From Escherichia coli (lineage in GTDB: Bacteria; Pseudomonadota; Gammaproteobacteria; Enterobacterales; Enterobacteriaceae), in NCBI RefSeq assembly GCF_009931435.1, contig NZ_CP043414.1: 64,000 nucleotides of DNA; one strand, given 5' to 3'. The stretch's first letter is position 1. The number at the start of each line of letters is the position of its first letter. The notes under the pieces were generated by a model. That model saw only the letters and a program-made list of their open reading frames with translations, did no database searches and was not told the DNA's origin. Positions 3 through 11,542 of the stretch are shown here, piece by piece. The translations under genes and the position numbers were made by a program.

Positions 3-3000
3 ATGGCCTCCGACGGTACAATCTATAAACGACCACTGTTGTTGAAAGAGCTGAGTAACACCAGTGGTCGAAATTCTACGGCTGAAAACGGTGAAGATTG
101 GGCAAGATTCACCTGGACTCAGTCGGCTGACACCAGCATGAATGGGTGTGGTACAGATTATATGCCGACGCTGGATGGACTGAAGTCTTTGTATGACGCC
201 AATAGCGGTAATGTGATGAGTACGGTGCAGGGATGGCCGGTAAAAACGACCTATCTCACCAATACCCCGAGTGATACGCAAACAGGGAGCCGTTACTACA
301 ATGTGGTGCAACTGAATACTGGTGCAGTCTCACAAATCTCGACGAACACAGTCGTGCAACAAACCTGCCGCACAACGCCGTTGACGGCTGCTAGCCAGAT
401 TACGCTGGAGGCCTCAGACCCCTCGCAATTTGTCAGCATTGACAGTACGCTTAGCGCGATCAAAGTGCAGAAAGGCGATAGCGTGTCGATCCGCATTTCG
501 ACTAAAGATGCACAGGGGAATTTAGTCGGCAATACGCCGTTTGCCCTGAAACACGCTAACCCGGTCAATCGCCAAAATGTGGCGTCAACATCGCAGAAAG
601 TGTCGGTCACGACTGCGTCGGGTACGACGGTGGATACCACTGCATCGACCATTCTGTATGGCGTGACCGGGCCAGACGGAACCACCACGATGACACTCCG
701 ACAGGATGTGTCTACTGGACTCAAAACCGACTTTTATGCTCTGTTGAACGATACCGGCGTGTCGTCGAACACCTTGCCAGTGATCTTCACCGTCGTCACC
801 AGCCCGGATACACCGCTGGCGGCCAACTGGGGGCATATGGCGGAAACCTTTACCAGCAGCAAGGGCGTCACCTTCAAACGGCCTTTCCTCAAAGCTGAAC
901 TTTCTGGTGGTACGGCGGTAACGACCAATAATGAAGTCTGGTCGCGCCTGACAGCAACGGAGAAAACGGATGCCAGCAAGGCTGGGTGTGATGAGAGTTA
1001 TCAACCGCTGATGACTGACATGCAGGGGTTGTATGCGGATTACCCTAACAACCAGTTGGGCACGGTGCTCGGCTTGCCGACTTCCGCCGGGTATATGTGG
1101 GCCTACGACATGATGACGGTTTCTGGCAGCAGCTGGAGCAACCAGGCATATTCGCTCGTTAATGGTCAGACAGTTCAGGCATCGTCCAGTTATACGGCGG
1201 TAGTGATGTGCCTGGTGGAACCGCATACCGTTCCGGCGATGATAGAGATCACTTCAACAGCACAGGATGCGGCAAAAACGGTCAGCAATGGTGGTCGACC
1301 GAGCGCCGTAGCGAAGAAAGGTGAGACGATTCCGCTGACGGTGACCGTACGTGATAGCACCGGGAATCCGGTACCCTACGCCGACTTTACCCTCACGCGT
1401 GGAACGACGCTGGATCGCTCGAAAGCAACCGTTAACTCGAGTGCGGACGATCTTACCGTGAAGTCATTGATACCCGCGAACAGCGACGCTGGGCTGACGG
1501 CAAATGGGGCAAAAGTGCTCAGAACAACGGGCAGTGATGGCACAGCCACCTTTGAAGTGAGCCAGAATGCCACGACAGGTCTGGCGACACCGATAACCGT
1601 CACGCTGGCGCGCGATACAACCAAAACCGCCACGCTGGATGTTATCTACACGGTGATAACCAGCCCGGACTCACCGAGCGCGAAATTCTGGGGATACATG
1701 CCGGACACCTTTACCAGTTCGGCAGGCGTCACCTTCAGACGACCGCTCCTGAAAGCCGAAGCGACTTCAGGGTCATCGATTAGCACTAACGGCAATGGTG
1801 AAGTGTGGTCGTATATGAGCAACGTTCAAAATTTAACATCGACAGATTGTCCGCTGGAGAATCAACCGCGCAGTAATGAATTGTTGGATTTGTATAATGA
1901 TCATCCCAACGGCGCGATAATGACTGACCTGGGGCTGCCGATATATGCAGGCAAGTGGTGGGCTTATGATATGGTCATGCCGGATTTATATACGTGGCAG
2001 TATCAGACTGTCAGCCTGAGCGCAGGAGATATCGCGAAGAGCTCGGCAAACAACGCGCTGATGCTTTGCCTGGCGAAGCCGCATCCGGCAGGCGTCAGCG
2101 TAATGTTGACGTCATCCGCAATGGATAACGCCAGAACCCTCAGTAATGGCGGGCGACCCAGCGCGTCAGTGAAAAAAGGTAACCCACTGCCAATTGTGGT
2201 GACGGTCAAAGATCGTGATGGCAACCCGCTGGCGGGAGAGGCCGTTACGCTCAGGCGTGGTTCAGCGATGAGCCGTTCAGGAGCAGGAGTGGGCACGCCG
2301 GCAAATGCAATGACGTTGACAGAGTTGACACCTGTGTCGGCGGAGTTTTCTCTGGCCGCACACGATACGCAATGGCAAGGTTTCACCGGCAGTGATGGTA
2401 CGGCCACTTTCAATGTTGAACAGCCTGAGACCATCGGCCTGGCCATTCCGTTCACCGCTATACTGGCGCGAGATGTCGCAACTACCAGCGTCCTTGATAC
2501 GATCTTTACCGTCGTCACCAGCCCGGATTCCGCAATGGCGACCTACTGGGGCCATATGCCGGATACGGTAACGGCGGAAAACGGCGTGGTCTTTGAACGG
2601 CCTAAATTGTTGAAAGAGCTGCCGTCGAGCGCCGGAGTCAGTCAGGTGACGGATAACAATGAAGTGTGGCCGTTGTTTAAGGCAACGCAAAGGGAAGATA
2701 GCAGCCTCAGTCCTTGTGAAGCGGCACGTCGGCCATTGAGCGATGATTTATTATCGCTCTACGCGCGCTATCCGGGGAACACGCTGACGACTCAAATCGG
2801 CTGGTCTACGAAGTATGCATGGTGGGCACTGGATAACAAGCAGGGGAATGCCCTGGTTGTCAGTCTGAATAATGGTTTTGAGTCGTCGACGGCGAGTACG
2901 GGGTATCAGGGATGTCTGGTCAATCCCCGCGCGACCGTCTCCAGCGTCACGCTGACATCGACGGTGATAGATGCCACTACGCAGGCGGCGAAGGTAAAAA

Positions 3001-3761
3001 AAGGTGAAGCCGCGCCCGTCGTTGTTACCGTAAAAGACAGCGCCGGGAAGCCGGTACCGAATGTCGCTTTCACCTTAAAACGTGGTGATGCCGTGCCGCG
3101 TAACAGCGGGGCGACGTTGTATGGTGATGTTGCGGCGATGGATGATATGACGGTACAACCTGCCAGCGGGACGGTGGTAACGCTGGCTGACAGTGGGAAT
3201 ACGATCGACGGTGTGACAGGGGCGGACGGTACGGCAAGTTTTGCCGTTCGTCAGGATAATACGCCAGGATATAAAACGCCGTTGACGGTGACGCTGACGG
3301 ATAACGCCACAATAACGGCGACGCTGGATACGATTTTCACCGTGCCGACCAGCCCGAATGTCGCCACGGCGTATTTCTGGGGGCATATGGCGGATACCGC
3401 CACCGTAAGTGGCAAGACGTTACATCGCCCGCTATTGCAATCAGAGTTGCCGTCAGGGGCTACAGCGGCAGTAGCGCCAACGGTGAATAATGAAATCTGG
3501 GCGCTGGCACATGTGATCGATGCTCAAAAATGGGATATTGCAAAGCAGTGCGGTGACTTTAGTAGAGCACCGAGCTATACCGATTTACAGTCGTTACATA
3601 GCAGCTTTAGCGCGCTGGGATGGCCATCATCGATAAGCTTCCCCTATTTCTCTACCGATCGGGCCGGTTCGTTCTATTGTGGCATGGATGAAGGGGCGGG
3701 GACACAAAACTGCGGTATTCAGGCATCCAGTACTGCGGGGTTTGCAACCTGTTTCCAGTAG
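3..3761 (+). CDS. Large repetitive surface/adhesin-like protein, RatA/RatB-like; 5'-truncated by window edge (C-terminal 1252 aa present)
   Basis: Open frame runs from the window start. Four tandem modules of about 285 aa each begin near nt 781, 1641, 2501 and 3331 with a conserved motif (FTVVTSPD...WGHM.DT.T...GV.F.RP.L.KEL). Position next to xseA matches the Salmonella CS54 islet; the family assignment is from memory. Confidence 0.6.
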   Translation: MASDGTIYKRPLLLKELSNTSGRNSTAENGEDWARFTWTQSADTSMNGCGTDYMPTLDGLKSLYDANSGNVMSTVQGWPVKTTYLTNTPSDTQTGSRYYNVVQLNTGAVSQISTNTVVQQTCRTTPLTAASQITLEASDPSQFVSIDSTLSAIKVQKGDSVSIRISTKDAQGNLVGNTPFALKHANPVNRQNVASTSQKVSVTTASGTTVDTTASTILYGVTGPDGTTTMTLRQDVSTGLKTDFYALLNDTGVSSNTLPVIFTVVTSPDTPLAANWGHMAETFTSSKGVTFKRPFLKAELSGGTAVTTNNEVWSRLTATEKTDASKAGCDESYQPLMTDMQGLYADYPNNQLGTVLGLPTSAGYMWAYDMMTVSGSSWSNQAYSLVNGQTVQASSSYTAVVMCLVEPHTVPAMIEITSTAQDAAKTVSNGGRPSAVAKKGETIPLTVTVRDSTGNPVPYADFTLTRGTTLDRSKATVNSSADDLTVKSLIPANSDAGLTANGAKVLRTTGSDGTATFEVSQNATTGLATPITVTLARDTTKTATLDVIYTVITSPDSPSAKFWGYMPDTFTSSAGVTFRRPLLKAEATSGSSISTNGNGEVWSYMSNVQNLTSTDCPLENQPRSNELLDLYNDHPNGAIMTDLGLPIYAGKWWAYDMVMPDLYTWQYQTVSLSAGDIAKSSANNALMLCLAKPHPAGVSVMLTSSAMDNARTLSNGGRPSASVKKGNPLPIVVTVKDRDGNPLAGEAVTLRRGSAMSRSGAGVGTPANAMTLTELTPVSAEFSLAAHDTQWQGFTGSDGTATFNVEQPETIGLAIPFTAILARDVATTSVLDTIFTVVTSPDSAMATYWGHMPDTVTAENGVVFERPKLLKELPSSAGVSQVTDNNEVWPLFKATQREDSSLSPCEAARRPLSDDLLSLYARYPGNTLTTQIGWSTKYAWWALDNKQGNALVVSLNNGFESSTASTGYQGCLVNPRATVSSVTLTSTVIDATTQAAKVKKGEAAPVVVTVKDSAGKPVPNVAFTLKRGDAVPRNSGATLYGDVAAMDDMTVQPASGTVVTLADSGNTIDGVTGADGTASFAVRQDNTPGYKTPLTVTLTDNATITATLDTIFTVPTSPNVATAYFWGHMADTATVSGKTLHRPLLQSELPSGATAAVAPTVNNEIWALAHVIDAQKWDIAKQCGDFSRAPSYTDLQSLHSSFSALGWPSSISFPYFSTDRAGSFYCGMDEGAGTQNCGIQASSTAGFATCFQ

Positions 3762-8500: not shown

Positions 8501-8532
8501 AATGCCAGTCAGTTTGCTGACTGGCATTTTTT
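8501..8532 (+). terminator. Intrinsic terminator of guaBA
   Basis: 12 bp perfect stem (AATGCCAGTCAG / CTGACTGGCATT), 4 nt loop, then a T6 run; 43 nt after the guaA stop. Confidence 0.75.
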
Positions 8533-8752
8533 ATTGGTTTTTCATTGAGTTTATGACTTCTATTTTTAAGGCCGTAACTCTATAACATCGGCTATGGCCT
8601 AAAGATAAAAGCCATTACCAACAAAATGGCGGTATTCCAAAACAGTCTAGCCGGAAGTGCTTACAATGAGATCGATCAAATCGACAAATGAGATACTGGC
8701 CGTTGTGAGCGCCCGGCAACCGTAGCCGTAGGGGGCGAATTTAATGGCTTTG

Positions 8753-9529
8753 TTATGAGCCATTGGTAATCGCACCCATGACAATTTGAAAGAGTTCTTC
8801 TGCTCGATTAGTGGAGCCAATTGCACCTCTTTCTCTCGCCATTCTCTTGTGCTCTGGTAGATCTGAGGACGCATAGATCATAAAAGGAGTTTTGTCTCCC
8901 ATTGCGCGTAATCTTTCTAGTAAGACATAACCTTCTTGCGCCCCTTCTTTGCGATCCATATCCGAAATAATAGCTGCAAACTTATTTGTTTTTAACAATT
9001 CCAAGGCTTCGTCAGTTGAAAGAGCTAAAGCGAACTCTATTCCCTGTGCCTCAAATGCCTGTCTTTCGTAAACATTATTTTCTGGTCGATCATCCACCCA
9101 TAAAATACGATTTCGCCATTTTTCATGCTTACTCTGCCGTTTTGCATTGGATACAACGTTGACGATTTTTTGCAGTTGGCTTTCAGTGACCCCTGCACTA
9201 TTTTCAGGCTGTTTTGCTGTGGCGGCGGTCAATGATGCTGCTGTAGCTATTTGCGCTCTTAAAAAATTATTTTCATCTTTGAAATCTGACGGCCCGTAAA
9301 GCTTATTATGATGTTTCGCAACAAGCCAGAGAAAGCCAAGAAACACAATGACAGGAAAGAAAACCATGAAATAAATAAGGGGAGCTATATGCTCTGATAA
9401 GCCATTACCAAAGCCAACGACGAAAGAGGCAAATCCATAAACGAGAACAATAAAGAGTGCAATGATACCAAGAGGGCTTTTGGTAAATCCTATTGCAGTT
9501 TCAGCAAATTTCTCTGGTTCCATATCCAT
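8753..9529 (-). CDS. Membrane-anchored receiver-like (CheY-fold) protein: two predicted TM helices plus C-terminal pseudo-receiver domain
   Basis: 258 aa ORF. Hydrophobic stretches at about residues 19-41 and 48-72. Residues about 141-252 align by eye to CheY (ILWVDD for the beta1 acidic pair, IISDMD for the phospho-acceptor Asp, IYASS for the Thr/Ser position), but no lysine at the K109-equivalent position. Low GC, about 40 percent. Confidence 0.55.
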   Translation of the reverse strand: MDMEPEKFAETAIGFTKSPLGIIALFIVLVYGFASFVVGFGNGLSEHIAPLIYFMVFFPVIVFLGFLWLVAKHHNKLYGPSDFKDENNFLRAQIATAASLTAATAKQPENSAGVTESQLQKIVNVVSNAKRQSKHEKWRNRILWVDDRPENNVYERQAFEAQGIEFALALSTDEALELLKTNKFAAIISDMDRKEGAQEGYVLLERLRAMGDKTPFMIYASSDLPEHKRMARERGAIGSTNRAEELFQIVMGAITNGS

Positions 9530-9616
9530 CCTCAGTATTGCTCATAACACAGTTAAGTTGTATTAGATCAGACCTGATCTGACAATTACCGGCTATTTAT
9601 AAAGGTATCTGTCAGA

Positions 9617-10012
9617 TTACATCTGGCTTAAGTTTTTCTCATCCCAGATGTGCTTTCCATCAAGTAACGTTTCCATCGGCGTTCGGCCACTGCACATTTT
9701 TCCCTGATGGGTTCGCTCATTATTATAGTGAACCCGCCATTCATCAAGAACCGATTGTAATGCTTCAAGATCATCATATAACTTTTTGCGGAACGTCACC
9801 TGATAAAACTCGTTCAGTATCGTTTTATGGAACTGCTCGCAGATACTATTGGTCTTAGATGACATTGCTTTCGTTTTCGTATGCTCAATATCATTTATCG
9901 CCAGATAAAGCTGGTAATCATGCTGCTCCACTTTACCGCAATCTCTTGGTGTATTGAGAGGCGGGTTATAAAATAAATACTGATACCATGAGGGCGGATC
10001 AATCGTGGTCAT
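9617..10012 (-). pseudogene. 3' remnant of a DDE (rve-type) transposase gene
   Basis: 131 aa ORF whose C-terminal part (SSKTNSICEQFHKTILNEF...HYNNERTHQG...GRTP) matches the integrase-core C-terminus typical of IS481/IS3-type transposases. The N-terminal two thirds of a transposase are absent and the ATPase gene abuts the truncation point. Confidence 0.55.
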
Positions 10013-10027
10013 AGTATCAGGTCATTC

Positions 10028-11542
10028 TCATGGGTTTATTGCGTCCCTGAAGATGACGTCGCTGACCATCTCTCCTCCAAGAAAATCGATCAACATATTC
10101 GAGTTTTCAAGGTCTTCTCTGGTCAATGCCCCGATTGCTTGTCCAACTACTACCTCCCAAGGTTTTTTACACTCAACAATAGCACAGACGAGTTGGCGGA
10201 TTTTCTTGATCTTCTTGTGACGCAATCGGTCGTTCGATTCCATTAGTTCTGCAATCAACGCTATGTCGGAGTGTGTTTGATTATCCTCAACCCATTTTTT
10301 GGCTGCGTCTACAAATTCCACCCATGTAACATTCATTACTGCAAGGCATGAATCAGTCAAAAGAACATTTTCGATAGCGTAGCATCGTAAGCGATAGCGT
10401 TTAAGAGGTAGGCGATGTTCAAGCGACTTGTTGATTACACCATCGCCATCACGAAGGGAAAAGGCGATTGGATTGTCATAGAGTGTACTAAGGAGGTCTA
10501 CGCAAAAATCCTCAAGTTGACTCTGTTGATCTACGCTACCTGCTAGTACGGGAAAGATTTTTATTCGACCCTGTGATGTTCTGGCCGCTTGTTGCCAGAC
10601 TCGTTCGTCGTCCTCTCCTTCCAAAATTAATGCAGCGTCTTCGCTAAGAGAAAGCGATAGGGGGTGCCCGAAGAATGGTGCAATCTTTCGAAGTTCATCG
10701 CTGGCCGGTATCAATGAGATTTCATTTACTGCAAAGCTCTTCGTGCCGATTGATACATATGGGGAGGCGGCAAGAGAACAGACGAGCGGGGAACTATGGG
10801 TGGATAAGCATATGGCAATACTGTTCGCGTGTGTTCTAAATTCGTCGAGCATACTGATTATCAGCTTGCCCAGTCTAGCTTGGAGGTCGGGGTGCAGATG
10901 TACATCAGGCTCATCGAGGAGGAGTACGTTGAATTTCTCCGGATCTATTGTGTCGAAGAAATAGATGATTTCCGCGGCTAATGCAACCGCTTCCGATTCA
11001 CCGCTACTGATTTGGGCCGGATCAATAATCTGACCATCTACAAGTGATCGAAACTCATAATCGACATTACCCATCTCGAGCGAAATGTTAGTGAGAAGCT
11101 GATTAATTTTACTTAATCGGTCTGTCTGAAAGTTTCGCGTTAGATCAGTTCGAATTTCCGGAGTATTGGCAAGTCGACGTAAGTAAAGCGTCTCGGCCTC
11201 GCGAAATAGCATAGCCGATGCAGCTTTGAAGTTGCTTGCCTGATTAACTGCCCGAGTGTGCCTCAGCCATTCGGGGTTGTCGCTCATATTTGTGAGGACG
11301 GTGCCATCACGCTTGAACGATCCTGCTCGCTCTGGACTTACATACCGGACATAAAATTGCTGCTTGTTCTGGCTGATTGTTTGTTCGATATCGCGAAGGA
11401 AACGACTTTTTCCCGCACCGTTTCGGCCCATAATTATGTTGATGTTGTTTAAGCCGTAAAGTCGGCCAATTTGGCTAGATAACTCGCTTACTTTCAAGAT
11501 TGTAACTCCATTTCTTGTTGCCACATACGGTAACAAATACAC
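10028..11542 (-). CDS. ABC-type ATPase fused to TOPRIM-like nuclease motif (OLD-family / Gabija GajA-like), candidate anti-phage protein
   Basis: 504 aa ORF. Walker A GRNGAGKS (residues 39-46, nt 11405-11428), signature-like SSGESE (179-184), Walker B VLLLDEPD (206-213), H-loop-like STHS (247-250), TOPRIM-like Glu in LILEGEDDE (E308) and DxD in LRDGDG (D365/D367). Start codon uncertain: GTG at 11542, or a TTG at residue 16 preceded by GGAG. About 43-45 percent GC. Confidence 0.6.
   Translation of the reverse strand: MYLLPYVATRNGVTILKVSELSSQIGRLYGLNNINIIMGRNGAGKSRFLRDIEQTISQNKQQFYVRYVSPERAGSFKRDGTVLTNMSDNPEWLRHTRAVNQASNFKAASAMLFREAETLYLRRLANTPEIRTDLTRNFQTDRLSKINQLLTNISLEMGNVDYEFRSLVDGQIIDPAQISSGESEAVALAAEIIYFFDTIDPEKFNVLLLDEPDVHLHPDLQARLGKLIISMLDEFRTHANSIAICLSTHSSPLVCSLAASPYVSIGTKSFAVNEISLIPASDELRKIAPFFGHPLSLSLSEDAALILEGEDDERVWQQAARTSQGRIKIFPVLAGSVDQQSQLEDFCVDLLSTLYDNPIAFSLRDGDGVINKSLEHRLPLKRYRLRCYAIENVLLTDSCLAVMNVTWVEFVDAAKKWVEDNQTHSDIALIAELMESNDRLRHKKIKKIRQLVCAIVECKKPWEVVVGQAIGALTREDLENSNMLIDFLGGEMVSDVIFRDAINP

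Follow-up and report, generated by a model that had tools for sequence, protein, structure and literature searches.

Canonical receiver domains (Pfam PF00072) adopt a (βα)5 fold with an acidic pair after β1 and an Asp at the end of β3, and the protein described here is like them in all of these respects. It is encoded on the minus strand of a 64,000-nucleotide stretch of Escherichia coli DNA (contig NZ_CP043414.1 of assembly GCF_009931435.1; "the window" refers to this whole stretch), and consists of an N-terminal hairpin of two transmembrane (TM) helices, a helical linker, and a C-terminal receiver (REC) domain. We tentatively refer to it as 2TM-REC. Unlike canonical receivers, it has neither a cognate histidine kinase nor an output domain, and its receiver is placed C-terminal to a TM hairpin; the canonical Thr/Ser and Lys are not conserved, whereas the family shows an invariant Arg (Arg191), an invariant Trp (Trp142), and a β3-α3 loop extended by two residues. 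With no cognate kinase and no output domain, it does not qualify as a two-component response regulator. We propose, with a probability of roughly 0.4, that 2TM-REC is a self-contained, receiver-gated and proximity-activated membrane effector that works without a partner gene.

Receivers without histidine kinases have been described among the effectors of the MoxR-vWA, iSTAND2, and TERNS3 conflict systems, where they were proposed to be effectors or nucleotide-responsive switches (Kaur, Burroughs, Iyer, and Aravind; eLife 2020, 2021; PMC7159879, PMC8195603). These receivers fall in the same clade as that of 2TM-REC and are 43-64% identical to it, in proteins with vWA (SAV_2336_N), KGGVGR-ATPase, caspase (EACC1-type), and TIR domains. 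They are mentioned in passing in those studies and belong to multi-gene systems, whereas 2TM-REC is fused to a two-TM (2TM) module and forms a lone cassette. The window contains no MoxR, vWA, or STAND gene, and what 2TM-REC shares with the MoxR-vWA ternary and STAND systems is the receiver clade alone.

A receiver also controls a cell-killing effector in Detocs, which consists of the kinase DtcA, the buffer receiver DtcB, and the receiver-effector DtcC; phosphorylation of the receiver unleashes a toxic effector, which is transmembrane in some variants (Rousset et al., 2023). Detocs thus provides an experimentally supported precedent for REC-gated toxic effectors, including TM effectors. However, it depends on a neighboring TPR histidine kinase and on a buffer receiver, and carries its receiver N-terminal to the effector, whereas 2TM-REC has none of these partners and the reverse domain order. 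As there is no kinase, no buffer receiver, and no match to the models of PADLOC, in addition to the reversed order, 2TM-REC is not a member of Detocs. Another kinase-independent receiver, cREC (PF20274), was described by Iyer et al. (2021) as processing cyclic phosphates in NAD+/ADP-ribose systems. It resembles 2TM-REC in retaining the catalytic Asp residues and in its conflict contexts, but the match of our protein to it is marginal (E 0.009, vs. 2.9e-7 for the generic receiver family), and no NAD+/ADP-ribose-processing genes accompany 2TM-REC.

Besides these receiver-based systems, a number of signaling defense systems combine a sensor with a TM effector, including PycTM of Pycsar, 2TM-SAVED and Cap15 of CBASS, Cam1 of type III CRISPR, and the SLATT proteins. 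Their general layout, a small cytoplasmic ligand-sensing domain (Rossmann-like or β-barrel) joined to a short TM module, with sensors that are exchangeable among TM, TIR, and protease effectors, is also that of 2TM-REC. In 2TM-REC, however, the sensor would be a receiver rather than a cyclic nucleotide-binding, SAVED, or CARF domain, there is no signal-producing enzyme alongside, and profile searches gave no significant match to any known 2TM effector family (SLATT, PycTM, or others). As for the genetic vehicle, single-gene anti-phage cassettes have been reported in integrons (Darracq et al., 2024; Kieffer et al., 2025; both preprints). They share the vehicle and the size class with 2TM-REC, a Vibrio copy of which lies in a chromosomal integron among toxin-antitoxin and small unknown cassettes, but no receiver-domain cassette is mentioned in the two preprints.

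An initial annotation, made from the DNA of the window alone, read the gene as an open reading frame (ORF) of 258 codons. The gene is real, but it starts two codons further downstream: its homologs and the RefSeq entry WP_000433086.1 ("response regulator") have 256 aa, and the second ATG (9523) is preceded, at a distance of 6 nt, by a GAGG (9530-9533) that directly abuts the first one, which identifies the second ATG as the true start. Residue numbers below refer to the 256-aa form (adding 2 gives the numbering of the initial annotation). The features of the gene, including those from hydropathy and from an AlphaFold2 (AF2) model, are as follows.

8753..9529, minus strand: ORF as initially read, 258 aa counted from the first ATG
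8753..9523, minus strand: 2TM-REC coding sequence, 256 aa plus stop codon (RefSeq WP_000433086.1, 771 nt)
9260..9481, minus strand: N-terminal 2TM module, residues 15-88 (hydropathy, conservation, AF2)
9410-9472, minus strand: TM1, residues 18-38; the module also includes an NPLG motif
9314-9388, minus strand: TM2, residues 46-70, preceded by a short loop; the module also includes the juxtamembrane motif KLYxPxDF
9116..9259, minus strand: helical linker, residues 89-136 ("ASLxAAxAK ... IVxxV"; AF2 helices 84-104 and 114-126)
8768..9115, minus strand: REC (CheY-like) domain, residues 137-252 (Pfam PF00072, AF2, Foldseek, RcsC profile match)
9098-9100, minus strand: codon of W142, invariant
9089..9094, minus strand: codons of D144-D145, the acidic pair after β1 (ILWVDD), invariant in 62/62 members
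8951..8962, minus strand: codons of D188-M-D-R191, with D188 and R191 invariant in 62/62 members
8804..8806, minus strand: codon of R240, aligned to CheY Lys109 (...stnrP... vs. ...CLSKP...) in the RcsC/CheY alignment

The membrane-tethered receiver fold suggested by the initial annotation is well supported. Pfam Response_reg (PF00072) matches residues 140-235 with an E-value of 2.9e-7, as it does (E<=0.001) 61 of 62 diverse family members, and a profile of the family matches the RcsC receiver in the PDB with an E-value of 1.3e-14, along with CheY proteins. The AF2 model, built with 62 homologs as input (mean pLDDT 88.7, pTM 0.71), contains the TM hairpin, a linker of two helices, and a complete (βα)5 receiver, with strands at residues 139-143, 163-167, 184-188, 214-217, and 236-238, and helices at 147-158, 170-179, 197-207, 223-231, and 241-254. 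In a Foldseek search against the PDB, every one of the top 50 matches is a receiver domain (TM-score to target up to 0.87, root-mean-square deviation ~2 Å), which rules out the TIR, SLOG, and plain flavodoxin folds that had been listed as alternatives. No output domain was found by Pfam and NCBIfam profile searches, in agreement with the initial annotation, the NCBIfam matches being limited to generic regulators far below threshold.

The two hydrophobic helices that had been placed at residues 19-41 and 48-72 correspond to Kyte-Doolittle maxima (19-residue window) of 2.67 at residues 18-38 and 2.57 at residues 46-70, and to AF2 helices at 17-38 and 42-71. Because the loop between them is short and TM2 is directly followed by KHHNK, both termini are predicted to be cytoplasmic. 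None of the 62 members has a match of its TM module to a Pfam membrane family (SLATT or other). By mean consensus identity, the 2TM unit is the best-conserved part of the protein (0.71 for TM1 and 0.64 for TM2, compared with 0.57 for REC and 0.28 for the linker).

The catalytic positions of the receiver were located by profile alignment to RcsC and CheY, and their columns were counted over 62 members of 32-84% identity. Invariant in all of them are W142, D144, D145, D188, R191, and G198, and nearly invariant are P147, N150, S187, P213, and T238. D188 (D190 in the initial annotation), in the motif IISD, is the phospho-acceptor position at the end of β3, and R191 is an Arg specific to this clade at position D+3, in the extended β3-α3 loop. 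Since the Asp triad is invariant in such diverse members, the Mg/phosphoryl pocket is under selection, and no other part of the protein is as strongly constrained; the earlier suggestion of a pseudo-receiver is not supported. The lack of a lysine at the position of CheY Lys109, also noticed initially, was borne out: Arg240 occupies it, and the family has R in 21, D in 14, N in 12, S in 6, and K in only 2 members. At the position of CheY Thr87 lies Ala218 (A in 27, T in 21, S in 12, and V in 2 members), with Ser219 and Ser220 adjacent. The site looks remodeled, with the invariant Arg191 as a candidate replacement for the lost Lys. One relative, a metagenomic caspase-REC-FGE-sulfatase protein of 786 aa (P0202), has a degenerate pocket (WVND/ISGTER vs. 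WVDD/ISDMGR), which suggests an inactivated receiver that is kept as a scaffold.

The invariant pocket would also be expected if the receiver were itself the working part of the protein and the hairpin only localized it, either for catalysis on a phosphorylated small molecule or cyclic phosphate, as has been proposed for cREC, or as a membrane-bound phosphate sink or decoy for the histidine-kinase/Hpt (histidine phosphotransfer) phosphorelays of the host. That the closest solved sequence is a phosphorelay receiver (RcsC) is in line with this, as are the stand-alone receivers of 130-143 aa that exist in the same clade, the vWA proteins of MoxR-vWA systems, in which the receiver fills the "effector" slot, and the precedent of a phosphate sink in the DtcB buffer of Detocs. 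Nevertheless, we consider this explanation unlikely. Conservation is higher in the hairpin than in the receiver, and the hairpin also moves with other partners, which would not be expected of a mere anchor; the positions of Lys109 and Thr87, needed for efficient phosphotransfer, are not conserved; specificity for a kinase partner could not have been kept across the at least eight phyla that the gene has crossed; and the match to the cREC receiver family is far weaker than that to the generic family.

Both halves of 2TM-REC recur in other architectures. The unit consisting of linker and receiver (residues ~88-256) is found at 43-64% identity in TIR-REC proteins (P0194, P0209, P0255, P0267, and P0238), in caspase (EACC1-type)-REC proteins, some of which also carry an FGE-sulfatase domain, in KGGVGR-motif ATPase-TPR-REC and KGGVGR-ATPase-TIR-REC proteins, and in an nSTAND-like P-loop protein, an FtsZ fusion, and large SAV_2336_N (vWA) proteins. 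The TIR parts of the three proteins that were run against PADLOC (P0194, P0267, and P0238) match its ThsB, SAVED-TIR, and Argonaute-associated TIR models. The linker lies within the region of BLASTP homology to the TIR-REC protein P0194 and the nSTAND-REC protein P0247, i.e., it travels with the receiver. On plasmid pRphaN671d of Rhizobium phaseoli (locus L059, 3489-11805), an operon encodes a trypsin-like peptidase, a hypothetical protein, a MoxR ATPase, and, directly after the latter, a SAV_2336_N protein of 1509 aa whose receiver is 44% identical to that of the window protein. By its gene content, this operon is a MoxR-vWA ternary system of Kaur et al.; a DNA/RNA non-specific endonuclease gene and a WYL gene are found in its surroundings. 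The clade of the 2TM-REC receiver is kinase-independent and occurs in fusions with TIR, caspase, and STAND-type proteins as well. The initial annotation had missed this, as it had the integron cassette and the higher conservation of the hairpin.

The 2TM module, with the consensus NPLGIIALF...FPVxVL..FxWLV.KH..KLYxPxDF, is also mobile. In a sister family, present in Aliarcobacter, Scalindua, Parashewanella, a Paceibacterota metagenome-assembled genome (MAG), and a gammaproteobacterium (L040, L041, L043, L044, and L046), it is followed by a helical stretch and then, at the C-terminus, by a winged helix (HTH_45, E 1.3e-5); the matches lie at ~8001-8760 in L040, L043, and L044, at 6417-7160 in L041, and at 4685-5443 in L046. 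It also occurs with three other, unrelated C-terminal regions (L042, L045, and L047) and as small proteins of 135-165 aa with a coiled tail. The module matches phrog_26238, a PHROGs family with no function assigned there (E 1.5e-7, and down to 4e-12), and one relative has a non-significant match to PycTM in PADLOC (E 0.008). In three cases (P0455 and P0323, P0435 and P0336, and P0501 and P0299), a 2TM protein of ~85-111 aa and a linker+REC protein of ~156-168 aa form a pair. Their lengths sum to that of the full protein (e.g., 89+168 = 257), and they possibly lie on the same short metagenomic contigs; possible explanations are a gene split at the linker, a frameshift error, or a genuine two-gene form.

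The same distribution of the receiver, on sensor or core proteins (SAV_2336_N/vWA, nSTAND, and KGGVGR-TPR) as well as on small effectors (TIR, caspase, and 2TM), is the pattern of the "EAD principle" (PMC8195603), and could mean that the receiver is a homotypic adaptor of the effector-associated or Death-like kind. It would then dock the 2TM effector on a receiver-bearing STAND, KGGVGR, or MoxR-vWA sensor encoded elsewhere, and the orphan cassettes would be spare effectors, inert without their sensor. Several observations make this quite improbable: the 64-kb window contains no second protein with a receiver of this clade or a 2TM module, the 30 loci compared have no conserved partner nearby, the orphan copies in E. 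coli, Klebsiella, and Vibrio are under strong purifying selection, and a passive adaptor would need no invariant metal/phosphate pocket.

The family is large and widespread. We found 1957 homologs in 90%-identity clusters, almost all of 256 aa, with relatives of 67-99% identity in Klebsiella, Kluyvera, Acidithiobacillus, Pseudomonas, Pectobacterium, Dickeya, Pseudoalteromonas, Nitrosomonas, and Vibrio, and among 50%-identity clusters there are 4221 matches at E<=0.001 and 1793 at E<=1e-10. In a scan of one genome per species, which was run with the closer sequences, full-length copies of 49-87% identity are present in Chlorobium (87%), Bacteroidota, Kiritimatiellae, Acidobacteria, and Nitrospirae, as well as in Desulfovibrio, Firmicutes, and alpha-, beta-, and gamma-proteobacteria. 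These copies cover the at least eight phyla mentioned above. Against copies of 84-87% protein identity, the non-synonymous divergence (dN) is 0.07-0.10 while the synonymous divergence (dS) is saturated, and dN peaks in the linker and is smallest in the TM module and the receiver; these estimates point to strong purifying selection on the 2TM-REC family, and together with the number of homologs they exclude a chance ORF. One copy, in Rosenbergiella nectarea (L028, 7800-8726), is 90% identical but lacks the N-terminus and has in-frame stop codons in the receiver, i.e., it is a decayed pseudogene of the cassette.

The flanks of these genes indicate how they move. In Vibrio cyclitrophicus, 2TM-REC is one cassette of the chromosomal integron, with VCR-type attC repeats of which the upstream one stops 18 nt short of the start codon and the downstream one starts inside the stop codon (TAAC). 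Its surroundings include ParE/Phd and TacT/TacA cassettes, numerous small ORFs, and an integrase of the IntI type. The Vibrio locus L006 has VCR-type attC sites on both sides of the gene, the downstream site starting inside the stop codon (GGCACTTAAC), and in the Vibrio locus L007 an IntI-type integrase lies 8 kb upstream of 2TM-REC. In Acidithiobacillus (L010), two strongly folding attC sites flank the gene (-48.5 and -30.4 kcal/mol), and downstream attC-like sites are present in Chlorobium (L011), Ancylomarina (L016), and a MAG of an uncultured, beta-proteobacterium-like organism (L055). These sites were detected by a fold-based scan and direct alignment of the flanks; a strict RYYYAAC...GTTRRRY scan misses the known Vibrio site. 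A conserved 5' boundary and leader, G|TTATGA GCAATAAGGAG..ATG, and a conserved 3' context, GGCTCATAAC..., are shared by all of the above hosts, as well as by Pseudomonas, Sulfuritalea, and Dickeya. An attC downstream and an R' core upstream of a single promoterless ORF are thus complete in relatives and partly preserved in the window, where the two remaining elements are:

9542..9548, minus strand: 5' cassette boundary GTTATGA (R' core of the upstream attC, G|TTRRRY), next to the leader GCAATA..GAGG
8696..8756, minus strand: truncated attC remnant overlapping the stop codon (cATAACAAAGCCATTAAATTCGCCCCCTACGG...), ~60 nt, with the 3' half and its R' missing

The GTTATGA boundary and the leader also occur in Acidithiobacillus (L010), Chlorobium (L011), Sulfuritalea (L020), Pseudomonas (L004), and Dickeya (L050). 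The attC remnant of the window is homologous to the first ~50 nt of the complete attC in Chlorobium (L011), and in both L010 and L011 a full attC follows the common stop context "TCATAAC". From these boundaries, 2TM-REC can be recognized as a single-gene integron cassette in its mode of spread. Only the GTTATGA boundary and the 5' half of the attC remain in the window, which marks the E. coli/Klebsiella gene as a fossil cassette; in the window it lies between guaA and yfgI, and no integron integrase is present. Upstream of the copy in Agarilytica (L052), a 75-aa integrase fragment at 4 kb is followed by small ORFs on the same strand, an arrangement that is only suggestive of a cassette array. 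Elsewhere, singleton copies lie between unrelated housekeeping genes (Dickeya, Buttiauxella, and a MAG), and one copy (L051) adjoins a primase gene (Toprim_3/DUF927), possibly on a mobile element.

With its truncated attC, no integron integrase nearby, and an insertion sequence (IS) remnant upstream, and with the gene present in only 0.5% of complete E. coli genomes, the E. coli copy might be a non-functional relic of a captured cassette, a fate for which the Rosenbergiella pseudogene is an example. We regard this as very improbable, because the ORF is intact in Klebsiella and in all islet-bearing E. coli genomes (27/27, 99.6-99.7% identity), its Shine-Dalgarno sequence is preserved, and dN is far below dS throughout the family.

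As the initial annotation noted, the gene lies in an islet beside an ABC-type ATPase gene. The order of genes in the window is xseA, guaB, guaA, the islet, yfgI, yfgH, pdeF, ppx, ppk, and purN, and the islet stands out by its GC content of ~0.41-0.47 vs. ~0.53 in the surrounding E. coli-type chromosome segment. It contains three items on the minus strand, namely 2TM-REC and the following two:

9617..10012, minus strand: IS481-type transposase remnant, C-terminal part (integrase core), matching NCBIfam transpos_IS481 at E 9e-23 but under the cut-off of that family; a pseudogene in RefSeq, and a component of the islet rather than of the functional unit
10028..11542, minus strand: ABC-type ATPase ORF, 504 aa (489 aa in RefSeq, "AAA family ATPase"), with Pfam AAA_15/AAA_21 in its N-terminal half

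The entire islet is carried by 27 of 5426 complete E. coli genomes, always on the chromosome and in single copy, with 2TM-REC named "response regulator" by PGAP, and the same islet, also adjoining guaA, is found in Klebsiella pneumoniae. Just upstream of the cassette boundary, at ~9563-9579, lies tgtcagatcaggtctga, which resembles an IS end; the Nitrosomonas copy (L012) has a similar sequence on its upstream side. A hairpin with a 12-bp stem and T-runs on both sides (8501-8528, both strands), located between guaA and the cassette, is probably a bidirectional terminator, and a second terminator-like hairpin (8611-8630, minus strand) lies ~120 nt past the stop codon of 2TM-REC. At the beginning of the window (3-3761, plus strand), a very large ORF rich in repeats runs off the window start; the 1252 C-terminal aa that it leaves in the window contain repeated units of ~270 aa with Ig-like "VTVKDxxGNP" segments, and probably belong to an adhesin/invasin-like surface protein.

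The ATPase had been taken for an OLD-like nuclease, and 2TM-REC might be its effector or partner in a two-gene defense system. The two genes have the same orientation and share the low-GC islet in the 27 E. coli genomes and in Klebsiella, and the ATPase weakly resembles PDC-M01A, AriA, PtuA, and GajA of PADLOC, and the ATPase of retron Ec83; its C-terminal half has a faint DUF4435/TOPRIM-like match (E 0.29). This partnership is nevertheless largely refuted. The IS481-type remnant separates the two genes, the Klebsiella ATPase is split by an IS3 element while the 2TM-REC gene beside it (L001) is intact and 99% identical, the cassette boundaries imply that 2TM-REC arrived as a separate unit, and no such ATPase is found beside homologs elsewhere. 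The pairing with an ATPase-TOPRIM gene of the OLD, Gabija, or PARIS-like kind, for which the initial annotation had proposed a co-occurrence search, is thus confined to the E. coli/Klebsiella islet, and the ATPase may be an orphan or decayed defense ATPase.

No other gene takes its place. Clustering of all neighbors at 30 loci revealed no conserved neighbor family beyond chance and no histidine kinase partner, and the kinases at L050 and L055 pair with regulators of their own; the homologs do not lie consistently beside two-component kinases, an association that had been named as one that would refute the initial reading. As 2TM-REC is a one-gene, attC-flanked cassette that is also inserted as a singleton, and has no conserved neighbor at these loci, it appears to act alone. 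About 1.1 kb upstream of the Pseudomonas cavernicola copy (L004, 5553-6922), an adenosine-deaminase-family gene overlaps a Ham1/ITPase-like gene; this unusual pairing may be a nucleotide-modifying conflict module.

Taken together, we favor a receiver-gated membrane effector for the following reasons. The TM helices are conserved above the receiver and the 2TM module recurs with other domains, which argues that the hairpin is more than an anchor. It would thus be the output of the protein, probably membrane-active, and its oligomerization could lead to permeabilization, depolarization, or another perturbation of the membrane. The linker helices and the receiver would form a kinase-independent switch, in which the Asp-Asp-Asp pocket, helped by Arg191 instead of Lys, may bind Mg2+ along with either a phosphoryl group or some small phosphorylated ligand; acetyl phosphate and donors like it, or a signal derived from nucleotides, are candidates. 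Occupation of the pocket would change the association between receivers and thereby bring the effector modules attached to them into proximity. Proximity is what activates TIR NADases, caspases, and small TM effectors, and receiver domains alter their self-association upon pocket occupation. The same chassis would accordingly drive TIR, caspase, or 2TM modules in the relatives, all three being induced-proximity effectors, and it is this combination of exchangeable sensor/effector architecture, activation by proximity, and receiver self-association that leads us to prefer a receiver-gated effector. Its role may lie in conflict, as phage or mobile-element defense, or in stress-induced growth arrest.

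A number of observations weigh against this proposal. The canonical Thr and Lys of phosphoryl chemistry and conformational coupling are not conserved in the family, so phosphorylation may not occur, and the stand-alone receivers of the clade are explained no less well by an autonomous receiver function than by gating. Association with defense islands is weak: among 40 immediate neighbors at 10 diverse loci, only three have any PADLOC match (a WYL regulator, a weak CARF-like match, and a TnsB-like transposase), and none belongs to a complete system. PADLOC has no model for either half and gives zero matches whether the whole protein, the REC part, or the 2TM part is searched. None of 50,697 phage records contains the gene, and it is practically missing from plasmids as well, where the sole matches are a mislabeled chromosome and the Rhizobium vWA-REC proteins. 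Finally, we found no paper or experiment on any member of the 2TM-REC family in the literature.

What is already known comprises the receiver fold, the generic name, and the kinase-independent receiver clade of the comparative-genomic papers; our literature search found nothing on the 2TM-REC architecture, its spread by integron cassettes, the remodeled pocket with its invariant Arg, or the mobility of the 2TM module. Should the proposed function prove wrong, the gene would still clearly illustrate the fossilization of a cassette in an enterobacterial chromosome. If it is right, a function would be assigned to a widespread family that is now annotated only as "response regulator," and one more type of cassette would be added to the functions borne by integrons. 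Receivers would then be a general, kinase-free sensor and switch for cell-killing effectors, joining the SAVED, CARF, cyclic nucleotide-binding, and STAND domains. A broader picture, which we put forward as speculative and rather doubtful, is that a large receiver clade of thousands of clusters left two-component signaling to become a kinase-independent proximity switch, triggered by phosphate or a ligand, that arms TIR, caspase, and hairpin killers, with 2TM-REC as a one-protein immune or suicide device carried by integrons between phyla and into some clinical lineages of E. coli and Klebsiella. As 2TM-REC is a small protein encoded by a single gene that is already present in E. coli, the hypothesis of a receiver-gated membrane effector is directly testable.

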